DNA of 64,000 nucleotides from a virus. How positions within the stretch are numbered: the first letter of the stretch is position 1; every line of letters starts with the position of its first letter. Under the pieces are notes generated by a model that had not been told where the DNA came from, searched no databases, and was given only the letters and a program-made list of their open reading frames with translations. The stretch lies in IMG/VR virus record IMGVR_UViG_3300033049_000020, positions 64,001 to 128,000 of that record; one strand, given 5' to 3'. The position numbers were made by a program, and so were the translations under genes. Below, one piece after another: positions 15,840 to 45,642 of this stretch.

Positions 15840-16475
15840 ATGCCATCAGGATTTACAGCAGGTATTATAGACGGAAAACACAAAACCTTCACAGACTTTG
15901 CAAAGGATTGTATGAGGAACTTTGGTGCCACCATACATATGAGAGATGATGCTAGGGATAAGGAATATGAAGCTAGAGTTGTTTCTCCATACTACAACGA
16001 AAGGTTTGAGGAATATGTAATAAACTTAGGTAAACTATTAACAGCAACTGACAAGCAACTAATAACTAAGGAGAAAAAAAAACTAAAAGATAGGATAGTT
16101 CGTGCTACCGAAAAAATAATAGAAATTACTGCAACCAAAGAACGGTTAAACGCTTTCTTAAAAGAGGCTAAAGCATACCAATCACCGACACCAGAACATG
16201 ACGGTATTAGAGAGTTCATGATTAATCAAATTAAAGAGACTACTAAGTTTGATGGTAGTACTGAGTATTACGATAAAGAATTAGCTACCTGTAAAGAAGA
16301 GTTAAAGAATATTAACGTTGAAGAGATAAGAAGTAAAAATAAAGTATATCTTAAGGAAGATATTGAACGTGCTCTTGAGAATGAGAAAGACGAAAAAGAT
16401 AGATGTGACAACTCAAATGAGTGGGTTAGAACATTTCTTGATAGTCTTGAAGAAGAAAAAACCGAGAGTATTTGA
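15840..16475 (+). CDS. Hypothetical phage protein
   Basis: 211 aa ORF in tightly packed + strand run. Confidence 0.7.
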   Translation: MPSGFTAGIIDGKHKTFTDFAKDCMRNFGATIHMRDDARDKEYEARVVSPYYNERFEEYVINLGKLLTATDKQLITKEKKKLKDRIVRATEKIIEITATKERLNAFLKEAKAYQSPTPEHDGIREFMINQIKETTKFDGSTEYYDKELATCKEELKNINVEEIRSKNKVYLKEDIERALENEKDEKDRCDNSNEWVRTFLDSLEEEKTESI

Positions 16476-16496
16476 ACTTAAATTAGATAAAAATCA

Positions 16497-16566
16497 AAAA
16501 TATTTTACAAAAGACTTGTATTATCCAAATACTTTTCGTATCTTTGTACTATATTTAATAGAAAGA
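16497..16566 (+). repeat. 70-bp promoter block identical to 26843-26912
   Basis: Exact direct repeat containing TATCTTTG and TATTTAA, ahead of leaders 1 and 2. Confidence 0.9.
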
Positions 16567-16577
16567 AGAAACAAGTT

Positions 16578-16673
16578 ATGTTTACAACAATTACAATATT
16601 AGTCTTATGTTTACTGAGCAGCGTGGTGCTGTTGAGGCAAGAGAGCTATGATGTAATCTATTGTAAAGCATAA
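16578..16673 (+). CDS. Leader peptide 1 (Leu/Val/Cys-rich): MFTTITILVLCLLSSVVLLRQESYDVIYCKA
   Basis: Short ORF between promoter and terminator, ahead of Cys/Val/Leu tRNAs. Confidence 0.75.
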   Translation: MFTTITILVLCLLSSVVLLRQESYDVIYCKA

Positions 16674-16698
16674 AGAACTACAATACTTAATACATTAG

Positions 16699-16729
16699 AA
16701 GCTCTTACTCTCCAGTAAGGGCTTTTTTT
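16699..16729 (+). terminator. Attenuator terminator 1
   Basis: AAGCTCTTACT/AGTAAGGGCTT plus T run; 5' arm can pair alternatively with GAGAGCT at 16641. Confidence 0.85.
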
Positions 16730-16755
16730 ATGTCCAGTTCTTTGAAATAAAATAT

Positions 16756-16841
16756 GTGTAGGTGCCTGAGTGGTCGAAAGGTGCGGTCTGCAAAACCGTA
16801 AGGAGAAATCCTCATCGTCAGTTCGAATCTGACCCTACACT
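16756..16841 (+). tRNA. tRNA-Cys(GCA), long variable arm
   Basis: GTGTAGG/CCTACAC, loop CTGCAAA. Confidence 0.85.
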
Positions 16842-16847
16842 CTAAAT

Positions 16848-16920
16848 GTCCCTATAGTGTAGCGGTTCAGCACGTAACTCTTACAAAGTTGCAGCCCAGA
16901 TTCGAATTCTGGTGGGGATA
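16848..16920 (+). tRNA. tRNA-Val(TAC)
   Basis: GTCCCTA/TGGGGAT, loop CTTACAA. Confidence 0.85.
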
Positions 16921-16947
16921 CAAAGAGGAATGAAGTACAAGTTCCTT

Positions 16948-17464
16948 GGCTAAGTGGTGGAATTGGTATACACGCCCTCTGAAGGGGAGAGTTCATTACG
17001 ATACCAGAACGGAGTTGCGAGAGCGTGAGAAGGAGTTAGTTAATGAGGGTTTGTTGAAAGAGGTTTTATGTATGAATTTGGCAATAGGTGGAGGCGGTGG
17101 GTTTACTAGTAAAGAGCATATGTTAAAAGCTACTAAAGCTGGTAATAAAGCGACCCTTAAGAAGAGGTGGATTGATAATAGAGAAGTGAATGTTGATAAT
17201 TTGGTTAAACTAAACAAGAGTATGTGGGCTGACCCACATATGAGAGAAAAAATGCTTAAATCTAATGGGTTTAAAGATAAGACACATAGTGAAGAAACGT
17301 TGGGGAAGATGAGAGAGGTTATGAAGGGTAAAGGTACTGGGAAGGATAACTCGCAATATGGTACTTGTTGGATAACCAGAGATGGTGAGAGTAAGAAGAT
17401 AAATAAAGAAGGAATTAACGAATACCTTGCAAAAGGTTGGGCTAAAGGAAGAAAAGGAACATAA
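16948..17464 (+). pseudogene. Truncated tRNA-Leu 5' half fused to N-terminally deleted GIY-YIG/NUMOD3 endonuclease
   Basis: GTGGTGGAATTGGTATACACG Leu-type D arm with no T arm; ORF matches C-terminal part of 18569/30518 (CMNL..GG.GG, NSQYGTCWITRDG). Confidence 0.65.
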
Positions 17465-17696
17465 AATGGGTAAAGTAAAATATATAAGTAAAGTAGGTGA
17501 ATGGTTTAAAGAAGGTACAGAAGCTTTCCGTGAAGAACCTACCTATGAGGGTCATGCAATATACAAAGGTGTTTATGTTGTCGGAAGTTCTGGTGGTGGG
17601 TATGACAACTTTTGGTATAATAAAGGTCATAAGGATGGTGATGAGGTAGAGATGAGGGAACATTGTTCAGATGATGAATTTGATATTAAATAATAC

Positions 17697-17768
17697 GTCT
17701 CTATGGTGTAACGGCAAGCATCTCACTATGACATGGTGAACGGATTGGTTCGATTCCAATTAGAGATA
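17697..17768 (+). tRNA. tRNA-Val(GAC)
   Basis: GTCTCTA/TAGAGAT, loop ATGACAT. Confidence 0.8.
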
Positions 17769-17779
17769 CAATAATATAA

Positions 17780-17862
17780 GCCGCAGTGGTGAAATGGTAG
17801 ACACGCCAGACTTAGAATCTGGTGCCCTTACGGGCGTGTGAGTTCGAGTCTCACCTGCGGTA
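17780..17862 (+). tRNA. tRNA-Leu(TAG)
   Basis: Class II cloverleaf, loop CTTAGAA. Confidence 0.95.
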
Positions 17863-17873
17863 CAGTATCACAT

Positions 17874-17956
17874 GGGGATGTGGTGGAATGGTAGACACAC
17901 TAGCTTGAGGGGTTAGTGCCGTGAAAGGCGTGTGGGTTCGACTCCCACCATCCTCA
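17874..17956 (+). tRNA. tRNA-Leu(GAG)
   Basis: Class II cloverleaf, loop TTGAGGG. Confidence 0.9.
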
Positions 17957-17964
17957 CAACATAT

Positions 17965-18042
17965 GCGCTAGTAGTCCAATTGGTTAGAGGCATCAGGCTT
18001 AAACCCTGTCCAGTGTGGGTTCGAGTCCCACTTAGCGTACCA
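17965..18042 (+). tRNA. tRNA-Leu(TAA), short variable loop, encoded CCA
   Basis: GCGCTAG/TTAGCGT, loop CTTAAAC. Confidence 0.85.
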
Positions 18043-18045
18043 AAT

Positions 18046-18129
18046 GCCGTAGTGGTGGAATAGGTAGACACGAGGGTTTCAAAAGCCCTTTCCAGTAATG
18101 GAGTGTGGGTTCGAGTCCCACTTACGGTA
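18046..18129 (+). tRNA. tRNA-Leu(CAA)
   Basis: Class II cloverleaf, loop TTCAAAA. Confidence 0.9.
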
Positions 18130-18458
18130 CAAAATGAATGGAAAGCTAAAAACGGATATTAAGATGGAAATGAAACATAGTATTAAAGAAATAGTGAAAG
18201 ACAATACAGCTATACTGGAGTATAGTCAAAGTGGTAAATTATATTACTCTGTGGAAGTTGCAGATAGTACATATAGTGTGACAGCTACTAAATATACCTT
18301 CCCAGTAGACGTTACTAATAGTGATGACGTTGGAGATAGCAGATTTGAGTTAACGCATAAAGCGATTACTCTAATGAGGTATATTCGAAAGGCTATTAAG
18401 TCTGAAGAGATTCGTTGGGAAGAGTGTGCTATAAACTTTTCACAGTTGTAATTAGTAT

Positions 18459-18530
18459 TTCCCTATGGCGTAACGGCAAGCGTATCGTTTTTACATGACG
18501 AAGGGGATGGTTCGATTCCATCTAGGGAAA
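18459..18530 (+). tRNA. tRNA-Val(TAC)
   Basis: TTCCCTA/TAGGGAA, loop TTTACAT. Confidence 0.8.
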
Positions 18531-18568
18531 CTGGTGACTTTTTGGTACCTAGCACTATATTTAACTAT

Positions 18569-19213
18569 ATGAGGAAACCAAAAACGATACATTACATTTA
18601 CAAAACCACTTGTGATGTAACTGGTCGATACTATGTAGGGATGCATAGTACCAGTAACCTAGAAGATGGTTATATGGGTTCAGGTAAGAGGTTAAGACGT
18701 TCCATACGTAAGTACGGAGAAGATAATCATACCAAAGAGGTTGTGGCGTTCTACGATAGTAGGGAACTACTGGTTGAAGCTGAGAAGGAAGCCATCACAC
18801 CATATATGATTGGGGATAGGGATTGTATGAATCTGATGGGAGGTGGAACTGGCGGTTGGTGTAGTGAGGAGCACATGGTTAAATGTACTATAGCTGCTGG
18901 AAAAGCTAATAAAGTAAGGTTTGAAGTGGATATTGAGTATAAGAATTGGTGTTTAGATATTATGGCTAAAGGTAGGGCTAAATTAATTGATACGGGAGCG
19001 TATAAAAAGAAAGGTAAGGGGTTAGGTAGAGTTCATTCAGATGAAACTAAACAGAAAATGTCCAAATCGTCTAAAGGGAATGGTGTTGGAAAGTCTAACT
19101 CTCAATATGGTACTTGTTGGATAACCAGAGATGGTGAGAACAAAAAAATAAAGAAAGAAACTCTTAATGAATACTTAGAGATAGGTTGGGTTAGGGGAAG
19201 AGGAATAAAATGA
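18569..19213 (+). mobile_element. GIY-YIG (Seg-like) homing endonuclease
   Basis: YIYKTT..YYVGMHST..YMGSG; NUMOD3-like HSDETKQKMS. Confidence 0.9.
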
Positions 19214-19302
19214 AGGATAGGTTCAGCAAAAACCAACAGGTAAACAATTTGATTTCAACTCAGATTCAGGTGGTTCAAATCCATCGAACAATATCTATCC
19301 TG
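19213..19302 (+). ncRNA. CAGCAA-stem tRNA-mimic element
   Basis: AGGATAG..CAGCAA...CTATCCTG closing stem around an anticodon-like hairpin (loop TTTCAAC) and a T arm. Confidence 0.55.
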
Positions 19303-19603
19303 TCTTATTTAATTTGGATAAGTGAAAATTTTTACTTATCTTTGTACTATTATGACTAAAGAAGAGAAAAAAGCTAAAAGATTAGCAAGGGCAGAACGCA
19401 GACGCGAGAAGCAACGTAAGAGAACTTGGTTCGACTATGGTACTCTTCGTACAGACATCCCTCTTTGGGCTGCAAGACAGATTGCCCGAAAAGGCTACTC
19501 TTCAGCAAGTTGGGATGACCCTAGTTCACCAACTGGCAGAAGCCAAGTTTGTGATTGGAGTGGAGTCTGTCAAGCTCCTTGTAATGGTGATTGTTAGTAT
19601 ATC

Positions 19604-19662
19604 TGTGGGGTAGCTCAGTTGGCTAGAGCCTTGTTTCGGTGGTTCGAATCCGCCCCCCACAA
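19604..19662 (+). ncRNA. Anticodon-armless tRNA-like RNA
   Basis: TGTGGGG/CCCCACA acceptor, canonical D and T arms, 8-nt linker in place of anticodon arm. Confidence 0.65.
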
Positions 19663-19887
19663 CTAAATAATTATTTATATGTTTGAAAAATTAAAATGTA
19701 AGGTGTTTGGTCATGAGTGGAGATATAACTTCTCCACCATGCCAAACAAAACTATTTGTGCTAATTGCAAAATAAAGGCTAAGTTTGATTTGAGAGGATT
19801 GGAGTGGAATCCAATCGACACCTTTGAAGGTGAAAAAAGAACCGATGAAGAATTAATTGCCGAGTGGGGTAGTAAATTGTATTAATA

Positions 19888-21162
19888 ATGAAAGAAGATA
19901 AGTTTTACTGTTTGACTATGTTTCCTTATCCTAGTGGTAGTGGGTTGCATGTCGGTCACGCCTATAACTACGCTGTTATGGATAGCTATTGCCGTTGGAA
20001 GAATTTCTGTGGCGTAGAGACATTCCAACCGTTTGGTTATGATGCATTTGGCTTGCCAGCAGAGAATTACGCTATTAAACACAATCGAGACCCAAGAGAG
20101 ATTACTTATGAAAATATCGATAATTTTCGTGGTCAAATGGATAGAATGACTACCAATTACGAAGAGATGGTTATCACTTCTGACCCATCTTACTACAAGT
20201 GGTCACAATGGTTGTTCACCAAGATGGTGGAACACGATATGGCCTACAAGAAGAATGCGCCTGTGAATTTTTGTCCTTCATGTAATACTGCTTTGGCTAA
20301 CGCTCAAGTGGTTGAAGATAAGTGTGAACGATGCGATACTAAGGTAGAACAACGAGATATGAACCAATGGTTTTTCAGGTTGAGCAAGTATGCAGATAGG
20401 TTGGTCTCCAACTTGGACATCATTGACTTCCCAGAGAAGACAAAGAAGCAGCAACGTCACTGGTTGAAAGAACCCCAAGATTGGTGTGTATCTAGGCAAA
20501 GAGCTTGGGGTACACCAATCCCTATTAAGGGAGAAACCGACACATTGGATACATTCGTTGACAGCTCATTTTACTTTATAAGGTATTGTGACCCAACTAA
20601 CGAGAATGAAATAGCCGCTAAGGATAAGATACGTCAAGTAGACTTGTATGTAGGTGGTAATGAACACGCTTGTATGCACTTGGTGTATGCTAGGTTTGTA
20701 AATATGTTCTTGTTTGATATTGGTGTGACCCCATTTGAAGAGCCATTCAAGAAATTGGTTCACCAAGGTATGATAATCAAGGATGGTGAGAAGATGAGCA
20801 AATCTAAAGGTAATATTGTTAATCCAGACGATTATGACCCAGACGAGATGCGAGAATATTTGATGTTTTTGGGTCCTTATACCCAAGGTGGTGATTGGAG
20901 CGATAGTGCTATGGTGGGCATTAGGAGGTTCAACGGTAGGTTTAATAGATGGTTGGGTAATGCCCAGATTGACGGTGAATCAATAGATGTTGGACAATTG
21001 ATGAGTGATATTGATAAAAATGTGGAGATATTTAATTTTCATTTGGTTATTAGTTCATTTATGAAATTCTATAATTCAAACAAGGGTAAAGTTATCAACA
21101 TTAACACTAAGAATGAATTGACTAAAATGTTTACCTGTTTTGCACCCAATTTTACGTCTTAG
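19888..21162 (+). CDS. leuS: Minimal leucyl-tRNA synthetase (no CP1 editing domain)
   Basis: MFPYPSG.GLHVGH, DAFGLPAENYA, DWCVSRQRAWG, GGNEHA.MHL.YARF, KMSKSKGN. Confidence 0.95.
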   Translation: MKEDKFYCLTMFPYPSGSGLHVGHAYNYAVMDSYCRWKNFCGVETFQPFGYDAFGLPAENYAIKHNRDPREITYENIDNFRGQMDRMTTNYEEMVITSDPSYYKWSQWLFTKMVEHDMAYKKNAPVNFCPSCNTALANAQVVEDKCERCDTKVEQRDMNQWFFRLSKYADRLVSNLDIIDFPEKTKKQQRHWLKEPQDWCVSRQRAWGTPIPIKGETDTLDTFVDSSFYFIRYCDPTNENEIAAKDKIRQVDLYVGGNEHACMHLVYARFVNMFLFDIGVTPFEEPFKKLVHQGMIIKDGEKMSKSKGNIVNPDDYDPDEMREYLMFLGPYTQGGDWSDSAMVGIRRFNGRFNRWLGNAQIDGESIDVGQLMSDIDKNVEIFNFHLVISSFMKFYNSNKGKVININTKNELTKMFTCFAPNFTS

Positions 21163-22039
21163 GAAATATTTCGTCTAACCAACCATTTTTATATGCGGAT
21201 TTATAAGCGGCTTGATTATCACCTCTAAAAGATGTCCTATTTTTATAACCCGTTGAAGCCTCAAAACATTTATCCTTAGTCCAATAGTATTTTTCGTGCC
21301 CATCCTTGGACATGTGCTTACAAATATCATCCAACCAACCCCTTCTTAATGCTATATTATAAACTGAAACGTGTTTTTTTCTAAATTCACTTTTAGTCTT
21401 ACAATTAATGCTTATTTCCCGACACCTGTCCTTATCCCAAAACCCTCTGGGTTTAATTTTATTTGGAATAATATCGTATACGTCTACCAACCACCCACCG
21501 TTTTTTGCCGAATTGTAAGCTCCATGGTATTTTTTTATGAAATAGTCTCTACTTTCACATAATTTAGCCACTTCCAGACATTTTTCTCTTGTCCACTTGG
21601 TAGTATTACCCCCTAAACCACCACGTTTTCGATTAATTATATTAACCTTAGACTCTTGGTATTCTTTAATTATTTTAGACTCTAATTTAGCCGCTTCTTC
21701 TTTATCTATATAGTCGGTTAATTGTTTGACAATGAATTTATGATTATTCTTAGCTAAATATCGGTATATTGAACTTCTTCGGTCTACTCTGTGTTTATAT
21801 TTCCTAACGTCTAAATTGTAAGTTAAACCAATATAGATAGCGCCACCCTCAAATTCATAAGCGTATACGCACCTATTATATCTGTTACCGTTATTAGACA
21901 TATGTTCACATAGTTCTTCGTGCCACCCCATTTTCAACGACTTATTATAAGCACCACTGAACCTAATAGTAAATTCGGTTTTAGTAGAACATAATAAGGC
22001 TAATTCCTTACATTTATTTTTGGTTAGTTTATATTTCAT
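21152..22039 (-). mobile_element. GIY-YIG homing endonuclease with repeated WT/WD..KC helical modules
   Basis: VYAYEF..IYIGLT..R; four repeats ending AY.SA..GWL. Confidence 0.8.
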
Positions 22040-25586: not shown

Positions 25587-26923
25587 GATGGACTTAGAAA
25601 AACAATGGAACGACTTACGTAACGATGGTAAATTATTATCATATATTGAGGATAAGTTTGACCACTATAAAGAACTTGGCTATCAAGTAAGTGCCTTCAT
25701 AAGCTCTTCTTATATTAGTATTGGAGATGAGAGTATCACAGGCAACAAATCCATGTACCACGAATTAAAGAGTATTCATGATATGGATGCGTACTTAAAA
25801 GATAAAGAGGAAAGTCAACCATGAACAAACTACACGCAAGAAAAATAAGTGAAACCATACCTGATGTTGCAATATTCAACATGCTGGAACGTGCTAAGAC
25901 TGAGGTAAAGGATTGGTCGGTTCCATGTAAGGTGAATGGTCAGATAAGTAGGGGACATTTCTGGAACATGTTCGCATGTCAACTTAAAGCTCCAGATTTT
26001 GAAATCGTGAGTAGTATGGTTAAGTATAGTCTTATATATGAGTTCGGTGACCTACTTCCAAAGGAGTACCAACCACCCAAAAAGAAAAAAGGTAAGGAGT
26101 TACCATTAAACTATATTCATTCAGAACCAAAATTTAACTAATGGAAACAGATGGAGATTACGATACTGGATGGGATGAATCAGAAGATACTGAACTAGAA
26201 GCATGGGATGTAGAAACGGATTCTGAAGACCCAGAATTTGAAACTGGTAAGGAACCAAATAAGGATATTGATTATTTATACATTCTTGGTGAGGCTTGGC
26301 CAGTATATCCGCAAGGTATCACCACTATTTTCGAAGATAAATATGAAAGACCTCATATTGTATCTAGAGAGCAATTTGATGCTATTCACACCAAATACTC
26401 TTGTATAGATATTGATGATGAGGTAACGGCTATCGATATAGTCAAAATTGGAAACACATCTTACGAATTTACCATTAAAGAACTTAATATCAGATGTCGC
26501 TCTAACTATCCTTGGGCATTCTTTGAGAACACTCCAGAGAATAGACCGAAAATCAATGAGTACTATAGACAGAAAAAGAATAGAGAAGAGTTGGCTGAAA
26601 TAGTTGAAGTATTAAGAAACGATATTGCACAACTATGAACGAAGAAGTTACCCACTTCAATTATTGTATAGCTAGACCATGGAAAAATAATCCAAATAGT
26701 CTATCCGCATACGCTTTAGGTACTCAATTATTTTATGGTACTATGGAGGAGGCTGAAGACACAAGAGCGAATATAAGTAAACGAGCTGGAAAAGAATATG
26801 AAATCTATAAGCTTGATAATCAACCACTTATGAGAAAACCTTAAAATATTTTACAAAAGACTTGTATTATCCAAATACTTTTCGTATCTTTGTACTATAT
26901 TTAATAGAAAGACATAAACAGTT

Positions 26924-26992
26924 ATGAGAAACTTTAACGACATATTCGAATTCAACTTTGCCGCATTTGCGGAGGAGGATGATTGCATCTAG
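26924..26992 (+). CDS. Leader peptide 2 (Phe/Glu/Asp/Ala-rich): MRNFNDIFEFNFAAFAEEDDCI
   Basis: Short ORF between promoter and terminator, ahead of Phe/Glu/Ala/Asp tRNAs. Confidence 0.8.
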   Translation: MRNFNDIFEFNFAAFAEEDDCI

Positions 26993-27068: not shown

Positions 27069-27185
27069 ATGCCTTAAAATTAAAATATGCGACCTAAGCT
27101 AACTTGGTAGAAGCACTGGCTTGAAACCCTTCTTTCTAATAGAAGTAAAACAATTAGAGTGAGTTCTTTGACATCTTGGTTAAAT

Positions 27186-33308: not shown

Positions 33309-33424
33309 TGGCGTATGGTGTAGTGGTAGCACACTTATAACGGAACCTGACCAAGGTTCTATTCAGCAACAAAAATTTCCATTTCGAGGAAGTAGCGGAG
33401 GTTCGATTCCTTCTACGTCAACCA
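33309..33424 (+). ncRNA. tRNA scaffold carrying a permuted CAGCAA module
   Basis: TGGCGTA/TACGTCA-A-CCA, D and T arms intact; insert GAACCTG-ACC-AAGGTTC-TATTCAGCAA before hairpin TTCC-ATTTCGA-GGAA. Confidence 0.6.
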
Positions 33425-41676: not shown

Positions 41677-41761
41677 GGCGCAATAGCTCAGTTGGTAGAG
41701 CGAGGTTTAAAAATGCTACTTGTAGCGGCCTTGGTCGGTGGTTCGAATCCATCTTGCGCCA
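41677..41761 (+). ncRNA. tRNA-like RNA with hairpin inserted in anticodon loop
   Basis: GGCGCAA/TTGCGCC, canonical D/T arms, extra GCTAC-TT-GTAGC. Confidence 0.6.
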
Positions 41762-41766
41762 CATAT

Positions 41767-44862: not shown

Positions 44863-45642
44863 AAACTAATGGCTAAGAAACCAGTACCATGTATAAAGTG
44901 TGGCGAAACTAAAATAGTAATCGGAGATGCAAACGAAAGCGCCTTCAACTATTTTACGGGTAAATGTACCAATTGTGGTAATGAAGTATTTGGTGATTGT
45001 GGCATATTCCCTGAGATGGATATGATGGTTGGAACGTGGAATGCGTCTAACGACCCAAAGAAGATACTTAAGTCTTATAAGAGTACTATTAAAGATTACG
45101 AGAAGAAGATTGACGAAGTAAAACAAAAGATAGTTGAACTTGAATTCTGGCATACCAAATGATAGATATTAAAGACCTAAGAGTAGGAAATCATATTCAA
45201 CTTCATGAGGTAGATGCTGGTGAAGATAGAAAGGCAACCTTTGATTGGTTGAAGTCAAATCAATTGAAAAGGATATGATAAATGGATAAATTAGAGATAG
45301 GAACAAGAATAATATTCGTAAAGCTTTTAGATAGCCCAGCCACTGGCGACCACCCAGAATTAGTTTATGCTTATAAAGGAGACGAAGGAGAGGTAACTGG
45401 ATACAATAACTTTGAAGGGTATTGGGTTAAAAGAGATAAATGGCCAGCCCCTTTCGGTGCAGAGATAGAAACCGAATTCATCGAGTTAAAATTATAAGAC
45501 TGAAAATCAGTCACTTAAGAGAAATTTTAAAAATAATTGTACGAACACTTGTTTTATTCAAAACTATTTCGTATCTTTGTACTATAATTAAAATAAACAA
45601 AGAAACTTTGCACTTTTATTAAGTGCGCTATATTTAAAAGAA

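Follow-up and report, generated by a model that had tools for sequence, protein, structure and literature searches.

A leader of 31 codons, in which Leu, Val and Cys codons are concentrated, precedes an array of Cys, Val and Leu tRNA genes in a large phage, and the element is quite likely a ribosome-mediated transcription attenuator of the trp/his/ilv type that gates the phage tRNA array. Judged by its sequence, it would probably allow these tRNAs to be made only when Leu, Val and Cys codons are decoded slowly. Every anatomical part that a ribosome-mediated attenuator requires is present in silico, and the stall geometry fits in a folding model. The attenuator reading given in the original prediction is supported by this in silico anatomy and geometry, by the synonymous conservation of the codon run, by compensatory changes and by 15 further units. 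The classical attenuation mechanism is known; the present case differs in its target (tRNA genes), in its phage setting and in being organised as several units whose leaders spell out the isotypes of the arrays behind them. As a rule, the tRNA genes of phages are viewed as constitutive cargo serving codon usage or replacing cleaved host tRNAs. The arrays described here would be regulated isotype by isotype via the decoding speed of the codons they serve, in a direct feedback loop.

The stretch of DNA analysed (the window, 64,000 nucleotides) comprises bases 64001-128000 of a 152,464-bp IMG/VR virus record with a CheckV completeness of 43%. It has about 37% G+C and its + strand carries nearly all genes; ARAGORN finds 31 tRNA genes in the window and 43 in the whole record. 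Bacteroidota promoters have the form TTG-N20-TAnnTTTG, a consensus derived from Bacteroides promoters, and the promoter-like boxes in the phage record fit this form; the host of this large phage is of Bacteroidota type. The nearest named relative is LR745206.1, an uncultured phage of 634,780 bp, the two leucyl-tRNA synthetase (LeuRS)-like proteins being 60% identical. A search for relatives by means of an upstream 211-aa protein returned none, and a scan of IMG/VR with a promoter 18-mer gave mostly unrelated phage promoters and one true relative. LR745206.1, LR756502.1 and LR756501.1 match the 635-, 642- and 735-kb Mahaphage genomes, respectively. Al-Shayeb et al. described the Mahaphage clade as holding genomes of 634, 642 and 735 kb, with hosts predicted to be Bacteroidetes (PMC7162821); the text of that paper contains no word starting with "attenuat" or "leader".

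Anatomy and folding of the Cys/Val/Leu unit

The unit, termed unit B, starts with a repeat block holding the promoter (Table 1). Transcription would start near 16552, and the leader ORF begins about 25 nt later. A copy of the block that is 96% identical (26843-26926) precedes the Phe/Glu/Ala/Asp unit, additional copies lie at 45518-45606 and C1:55923, and the promoter core, TTCGTATCTTTGTA, has 7 occurrences in 152 kb. Downstream of every one of the four block copies lie a short ORF, a hairpin with a U tail, the motif GTTCTTTGA(A/C)AT and an array of tRNA genes; since all four lead into the same layout, unit B is one of four parallel units.

Table 1. Features of unit B, the gene for the LeuRS-like protein and the four leader-array units of the phage record (window positions unless preceded by C1)
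Feature	Position	Strand	Description
Promoter/5′UTR repeat block	16497-16580	+	84 nt, ends with the leader ATG
Promoter boxes	-33 TTG 16516-18; -7 TATCTTTG 16539-46	+	Spacer 20 nt, Bacteroidota-type
Leader ORF	16578-16673	+	31 codons, ATG to TAA, kept in three orthologs
Control-codon run	16599-16634	+	Codons 8-19, LVLCLLSSVVLL; 10/12 read by array tRNAs, two AGC Ser
Protector (1:2), predicted	16576-16673	+	Start region/first codons paired with codons 22-32; minimum-free-energy fold
Antiterminator (2:3)	16641-16706	+	Three helices; TAA 16671-73 in apical loop
Antiterminator helix	16641-47 with 16700-06	+	GAGAGCT with AGCTCTT
Antiterminator helix	16649-55 with 16691-97	+	TGATGTA with TACATTA
Antiterminator helix	16659-65 with 16679-85	+	TATTGTA with TACAATA
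Intrinsic terminator (3:4)	16699-16729	+	11-bp stem, CTCC loop, T7 tail; 5′ arm 16699-16709, loop 16710-13, 3′ arm 16714-24, T to 16729; dG ~-13
boxA-like site	16737-16748	+	GTTCTTTGAAAT; 8 nt past T tract, 8 nt before first tRNA
tRNA array	16756-18531	+	ARAGORN; Rfam tRNA 45-60 bits
tRNA Cys-GCA	16756-16842	+	Array position 1
tRNA Val-TAC	16848-16921	+	Array position 2
tRNA Val-GAC	17697-17769	+	Array position 3
tRNA Leu-TAG	17780-17863	+	Array position 4
tRNA Leu-GAG	17874-17957	+	Array position 5
tRNA Leu-TAA	17965-18042	+	Array position 6
tRNA Leu-CAA	18046-18130	+	Array position 7
tRNA Val-TAC	18459-18531	+	Array position 8
LeuRS-like class I synthetase core	19888-21162	+	424 aa; Pfam tRNA-synt_1
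Unit A	Leader ATG C1:56052		Run codons 1-14, MMSIHISSINWRRN; array His, Trp, Ser, Asn, Arg, CAT-anticodon tRNAs, three unusual Ile-anticodon tRNA-like genes
Unit B	Leader ATG 16578		Run codons 8-19, LVLCLLSSVVLL; array Cys, Val, Leu
Unit C	Leader ATG 26924		12/13 codons (8-20) in set; array Phe, Glu, Ala (with G3:U70), Asp
Unit D	Leader ATG 45643		15/15 codons (5-19) in set; array Pro, Gln, Tyr, Gly, Lys, Thr

The leader reads exactly as it had been quoted, codons 8-19 being TTA GTC TTA TGT TTA CTG AGC AGC GTG GTG CTG TTG. Leu, Val or Cys occupies 10 of these 12 codons (background of {C,V,L} 0.153; binomial 10^-6.5), and none of 3000 random peptides matched the score of the run. Among the 1060 small ORFs of the genome, the leader ranks second for {C,V,L}, the sole ORF outranking it being antisense and Leu-rich. 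The ten matching codons need the anticodons TAA, GAC, GCA, TAG, TAC and CAA, which leaves Leu-GAG as the only one of the array's seven anticodon species with no matching codon in the run. The array itself, with one Cys, three Val and four Leu tRNAs, was recovered as predicted by both ARAGORN and Rfam, and small ORFs are interspersed among its tRNA genes. ORFs resembling homing endonucleases (GIY-YIG and NUMOD3 hits) are found at 17072-17464, 18542-19213 and 21152-22039 (- strand), inserted between tRNA genes and adjoining the LeuRS-like gene.

Two AGC Ser codons, which are conserved, interrupt the run at its centre and count against the attenuator reading, the array having no Ser tRNA. It had been claimed that no tRNA of this cluster matches these codons, and indeed neither ARAGORN, also in relaxed mode, nor Rfam at E<=1 detected one for Ser in the unit B cluster, including the gap at 16921-17697. 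The pair is conserved in the orthologs (ACC AGC in one of them) and lies within a small local hairpin, CAGC/GCTG; a structural role for the two codons is possible. The tRNA-Cys-GCA at the head of the array is 87 nt long, with a long variable arm and a U discriminator, and one ortholog contig has both a normal tRNA-Cys of 73 nt and the form with the long variable arm. It was considered as a Ser acceptor and set aside, as the U discriminator and the GCA anticodon appear to fit Cys identity.

Downstream of the run, the three antiterminator helices pair where the original prediction had placed them, with the TAA stop codon in the apical loop. Antiterminator and terminator are mutually exclusive, as had also been stated, because 7 nt (AGCTCTT) of the terminator 5′ arm are common to both. 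The partner of the predicted protector, codons 22-32, is the antiterminator 5′ arm. When the RNA is folded free of ribosomes, the protector hairpin is formed and the probability of the terminator is 0.94.

For the modelling of stalled ribosomes, folding was restricted to the RNA that lies 3′ of the ribosome footprint, beyond A-site +13; this replaced equilibrium folding with pairs across the ribosome, which gave unrealistic protector pairing. In the footprint model, before the terminator 3′ arm has been made, the antiterminator occupies the terminator 5′ arm at 0.52-0.70 for stalls at codons 1-18, and its occupancy is 0.27 at codon 19, 0.02 at codon 20 and 0.03 at the stop codon. Hence, the Leu/Val/Cys run, which extends to codon 19, ends where the permissive window ends (codon 18-19). 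With the whole terminator present at equilibrium, stalls at codons 10-13 lead to terminator probabilities of 0.06-0.34. For a stall around codon 13, the native upstream RNA gives a terminator probability of 0.08, compared with a mean of 0.93 for 500 dinucleotide shuffles; values as low as the native one were reached by 2-5 of 500 shuffles (2 at the stall around codon 13). The antiterminator energy was found to be 3 sd below that of dinucleotide shuffles, 4 of 500 reaching it. The pairing probability of the terminator 5′ arm fails to separate native from shuffled RNA (110/500), and this measure was replaced by the antiterminator energy and the competition with the full terminator.

Since any stall at codons 1-18 is permissive in the model, codons 2-7 (Phe, Thr, Ile) could trigger read-through as well. 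Thr/Ile/Asn-rich starts similar to these codons are seen in the leaders of relatives, and such starts may serve initiation. In units A and D, the terminator wins at equilibrium in every folding state; the switch must therefore be kinetic there, as in the classical systems.

Between the end of the T tract and the first tRNA there are 26 nt, 12 of which form the boxA-like site, so a separate Bacteroidota promoter hardly fits there. The boxA-like motif recurs after all four candidate attenuators in the phage record, and GTTCTTTGAAAT is also found after a leaderless tRNA promoter at C1:48100. At that locus, which lies outside the window (G000:C1:48068-48260), GTTCTTTGAAAT and a tRNA-like gene come directly behind a strong promoter, with neither leader nor terminator; the D loop of the tRNA-like gene carries a large insert, and its anticodon stem is odd. 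Sphingobacterium and Dysgonomonas have motifs similar to the boxA-like site in their 16S leaders. A 17-mer of the site matched bacterial genomes at about chance frequency, by a rough estimate of database size, and no rRNA was present at the five loci checked from these matches, which carry no information on function; a literature search for the motif sequence returned primer sequences only. As a boxA-type site, it could render the polymerase that reads through resistant to termination across a long array with intervening ORFs.

Orthologs, sister units and units of other phages

Three orthologs of unit B are available, from the IMG/VR contig 3300009149_000307, a TARA scaffold and a second contig from the metagenome of 3300009149_000307. 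All of them retain L V L C L L (S/T) S V V L L, and the changes within the run are four synonymous Leu replacements (TTA/CTA, CTG/CTT, CTG/TTG and TTG/CTA) and one Ser-to-Thr replacement. Codons 20-31 carry amino-acid changes at seven positions among the orthologs. A run that is kept, followed by variable codons 20-31, is the pattern expected if codon identity and then RNA pairing matter. In the four sequences, 92.9% of antiterminator cells are paired, compared with 35-42% when the partners are slid, and five compensatory pairs were counted in these four sequences only, with a covariation score that was reached by 7 of 500 shuffles. For the terminator, 88.6% of cells are paired in the orthologs, and one position covaries in the antiterminator 5′ arm, the shared arm and the terminator 3′ arm together. 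In the IMG/VR contig ortholog (G005), the individual positions of helix 2 are not kept, and pairing takes a shifted register instead. The footprint model gives one ortholog the same stall geometry as unit B, and the arrays behind all three consist of Cys, Val and Leu tRNAs only.

The 20 amino acids are split 7+3+4+6 among the four arrays of the phage record. Two exceptions to this partition are low-confidence calls of relaxed ARAGORN, namely Val-CAC in array C, which has a poor acceptor stem, and Arg-TCT in array D; a second tRNA-Cys sits outside the four arrays, at C1:46998. When the best window of each leader was scored against its own array, the binomial scores (-log10) were 4.6, 6.5, 6.5 and 7.5, compared with at most 1.9 against other arrays. 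For their own sets, leaders C and D come first among the 1060 small ORFs, and the codons of unit D, read against the ARAGORN anticodons, query nine of nine anticodon species of its array. Regulation of this kind would account for the way in which these phages sort their tRNA genes, by amino acid, into separate arrays.

The three tRNA-like genes of unit A (G000:C1:59554-59941; L027 15554-15941) have Ile anticodon loops GAT, GAT and TAT, lack a normal D arm and contain an insert of 20-30 nt each in the variable region. The leader of unit C ends with a TAG stop codon. Directly 3′ of the unit C terminator, the segment at window 27088-27130 resembles a 5′ tRNA half with a GAA anticodon loop and was called by no tool.

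Twelve units were found in Mahaphage genomes, with leaders that differ along with their arrays: seven in LR745206.1, four in LR756502.1 and one in LR756501.1. The first leader of LR745206.1 has H, K, F, S and W in its run, with His, Phe, Trp and Lys tRNAs behind it; the Arg and Ser tRNAs come behind the leader after this one, which is rich in S and R. The others in this genome comprise a leader with Y, E and G ahead of Glu and Tyr, one with I, A and G ahead of Ile, Gly, Met and Ala, a leader of 38 codons, in which 23 of 24 belong to the set, ahead of Asn, Arg, Leu, Val, Ile, Thr and Met, one with P, Q and D ahead of Pro and Asp, and a leader reading QQIQQQQ ahead of three Gln tRNAs. Across 16 units of four genomes, the last codon that is permissive for the antiterminator varies from 12 to 25 and falls within about 1-3 codons of the end of the cognate run. 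More candidates, including two orthologs of unit D, occur in other IMG/VR phages with large tRNA arrays. The same pipeline detected no such leader at 20 tRNA clusters of three Bacteroidota bacteria. Such a leader would be a readable "label" that predicts the tRNAs of one transcription unit, and the units would offer compact, programmable parts for sensing tRNA supply.

Proposed mechanism and alternative explanations

It is proposed that transcription begins at the strong Bacteroidota-type promoter and that a ribosome starts on the 31-codon leader. With rapid decoding of the Leu, Val and Cys codons, the ribosome would proceed into codons 20-32 and on to the stop codon and cover the antiterminator 5′ arm, upon which the terminator hairpin would form and RNA polymerase would stop at 16729. 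When charged tRNA is scarce, the ribosome would stall within codons 8-19 and cover the protector arm, leaving 16641-16668 free to pair with 16679-16706. With the terminator 5′ arm thus sequestered, the polymerase would read through, past the boxA-like site and into the Cys, Val and Leu tRNA genes. The fresh tRNAs would then relieve the stall, which amounts to negative feedback on the supply of exactly the Cys, Val and Leu tRNAs. The analysis shows the sequence anatomy, its statistics, its conservation and covariation and the recurrence of the design; translation of the leader, stalling, regulated read-through and the function of the boxA-like site are inferred.

One could argue that the ORF encodes a small hydrophobic membrane peptide and is followed by an ordinary terminator, that the array is transcribed independently, and that the codon match is a by-product of hydrophobicity. 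Residues 5-19 do resemble a membrane helix, the set {C,V,L} is hydrophobic, and a functional peptide would also show the amino-acid conservation of the run in the orthologs. Because the unrelated antisense Leu-rich ORF scores higher than leader B for this set, unit B is, when taken alone, the unit most open to this objection. In the context of its sister units it is not, as the three other leaders are non-hydrophobic and yet match their own arrays, and the 12 units in Mahaphage genomes add to this. In addition, the C-terminal half is unconserved as a protein but covaries as an RNA, the antiterminator is far more stable than expected by chance, and the first tRNA follows the T tract at a distance of just 26 nt. 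A membrane peptide with an independently transcribed array is thus considered extremely improbable. It is very unlikely, too, that the element is a real attenuator which reports general translation capacity (ribosome availability or coupling), with codon content being secondary. This explanation draws on the read-through that any stall before about codon 19 gives in the model, and on the shared Thr/Ile/Asn-rich start of the leaders, which is unrelated to the arrays; however, it leaves unexplained why each of 16 leaders names the isotypes of the array behind it and why the cognate run ends together with the permissive window.

The third alternative retains an amino-acid starvation switch, responding to uncharged tRNA as in ilv and leu, and takes the LeuRS-like gene and the downstream proteins as its target, the tRNAs being passengers. 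The LeuRS-like gene lies 1.4 kb past the last tRNA of the array, and no terminator was detected on the + strand between the two. On the other hand, a -7-type promoter box (19337-19344) stands directly before the ORFs that lead to this gene, other units have the same design with no matching synthetase behind them, and the ortholog arrays were recovered with tRNAs only; the LeuRS-like gene is therefore highly improbable as the real target, although it may or may not be co-induced with the tRNA genes. The LeuRS-like gene scores 404 bits against the leuS_bact profile, for which the cut-off is 548, with profile positions 27-221 of 843 as the best listed stretch, and its protein has half the length of that profile. 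Just ahead of it, between small ORFs, lies a 59-nt tRNA-like gene (window 19604-19662; Rfam tRNA, 40 bits) that lacks an anticodon arm; its acceptor, D and T arms are present.

If the element is a tRNA-gating attenuator, a further and more speculative step can be taken with less than even confidence, namely that the attenuators provide on-demand tRNA replacement, in which the loss of a host tRNA class switches on exactly the phage array that replaces it. Host tRNAs would in this case be lost to anticodon nucleases, to other tRNA-targeting defences or to phage-induced decay. If true, the on-demand system would be a sensor-coupled counter-defence that is widespread in large Bacteroidota phages.

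Relation to known systems and other genes of the phage

Multivalent attenuators are known from enterobacteria, where the leader of ilvBN carries Val and Leu codons and that of ilvGMEDA carries Ile, Leu and Val codons; leuL is a further case. The phage element shares with these a short leader with mixed control codons of the Leu/Val type, alternative protector, antiterminator and terminator structures, a stop codon that lets the finishing ribosome block the antiterminator, and termination as the default. It differs in that it controls tRNA genes, has a Bacteroidota-type promoter, co-senses Cys and is one of four units that jointly cover the 20 amino acids, and no relationship to the enterobacterial leaders exists by sequence or Rfam family. 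As tRNA genes rather than biosynthetic enzymes are controlled, the product would act directly on the quantity sensed. The Rfam leader families (Leu_leader, His_leader, Thr_leader, Trp_leader and Phe_leader) gave no match to the phage element.

Leader-peptide attenuation of a gene of the translation apparatus is also found in pheM-pheST, the phenylalanyl-tRNA synthetase operon of E. coli, but pheM is bacterial, controls a synthetase and senses a single amino acid. T-box riboswitches likewise couple the supply of a specific tRNA to terminator read-through before translation-related genes; unlike the phage element, which has an ORF with start and stop codons, the T-box binds uncharged tRNA directly and without a ribosome. 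No T-box covariance model matched in Rfam searches of 16300-20000 at E<=1 and of the whole window at the gathering score; the former gave tRNA and two weak plastid models only, and the latter tRNA only. With regard to rrn-type boxA antitermination, the likeness lies in the GTTCTTTGA(A/C)AT motif directly past the attenuator, which resembles the motifs of two Bacteroidota 16S leaders, whereas the phage site is known from motif resemblance alone. No account of tRNA genes controlled by leader-peptide attenuation turned up in full-text literature searches.

Some further RNA genes were observed in the phage record. A tmRNA gene lies outside the window at G000:C1:44751-45126 (L027 751-1126; Rfam RF00023, 90.7 bits). 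Two neighbouring tRNAs with the amber-reading CTA anticodon are found at G000:C1:47335-47483, also outside the window and upstream; the genome-wide recoding of TAG that they suggest was unsupported by open-frame statistics. Within the window, a 113-nt Rfam tRNA match at 33309-33421 may contain an intron, and ARAGORN reads the gene at 41677-41762 either as a tRNA with the four-base anticodon aaaa or as a tRNA-Tyr with an intron.
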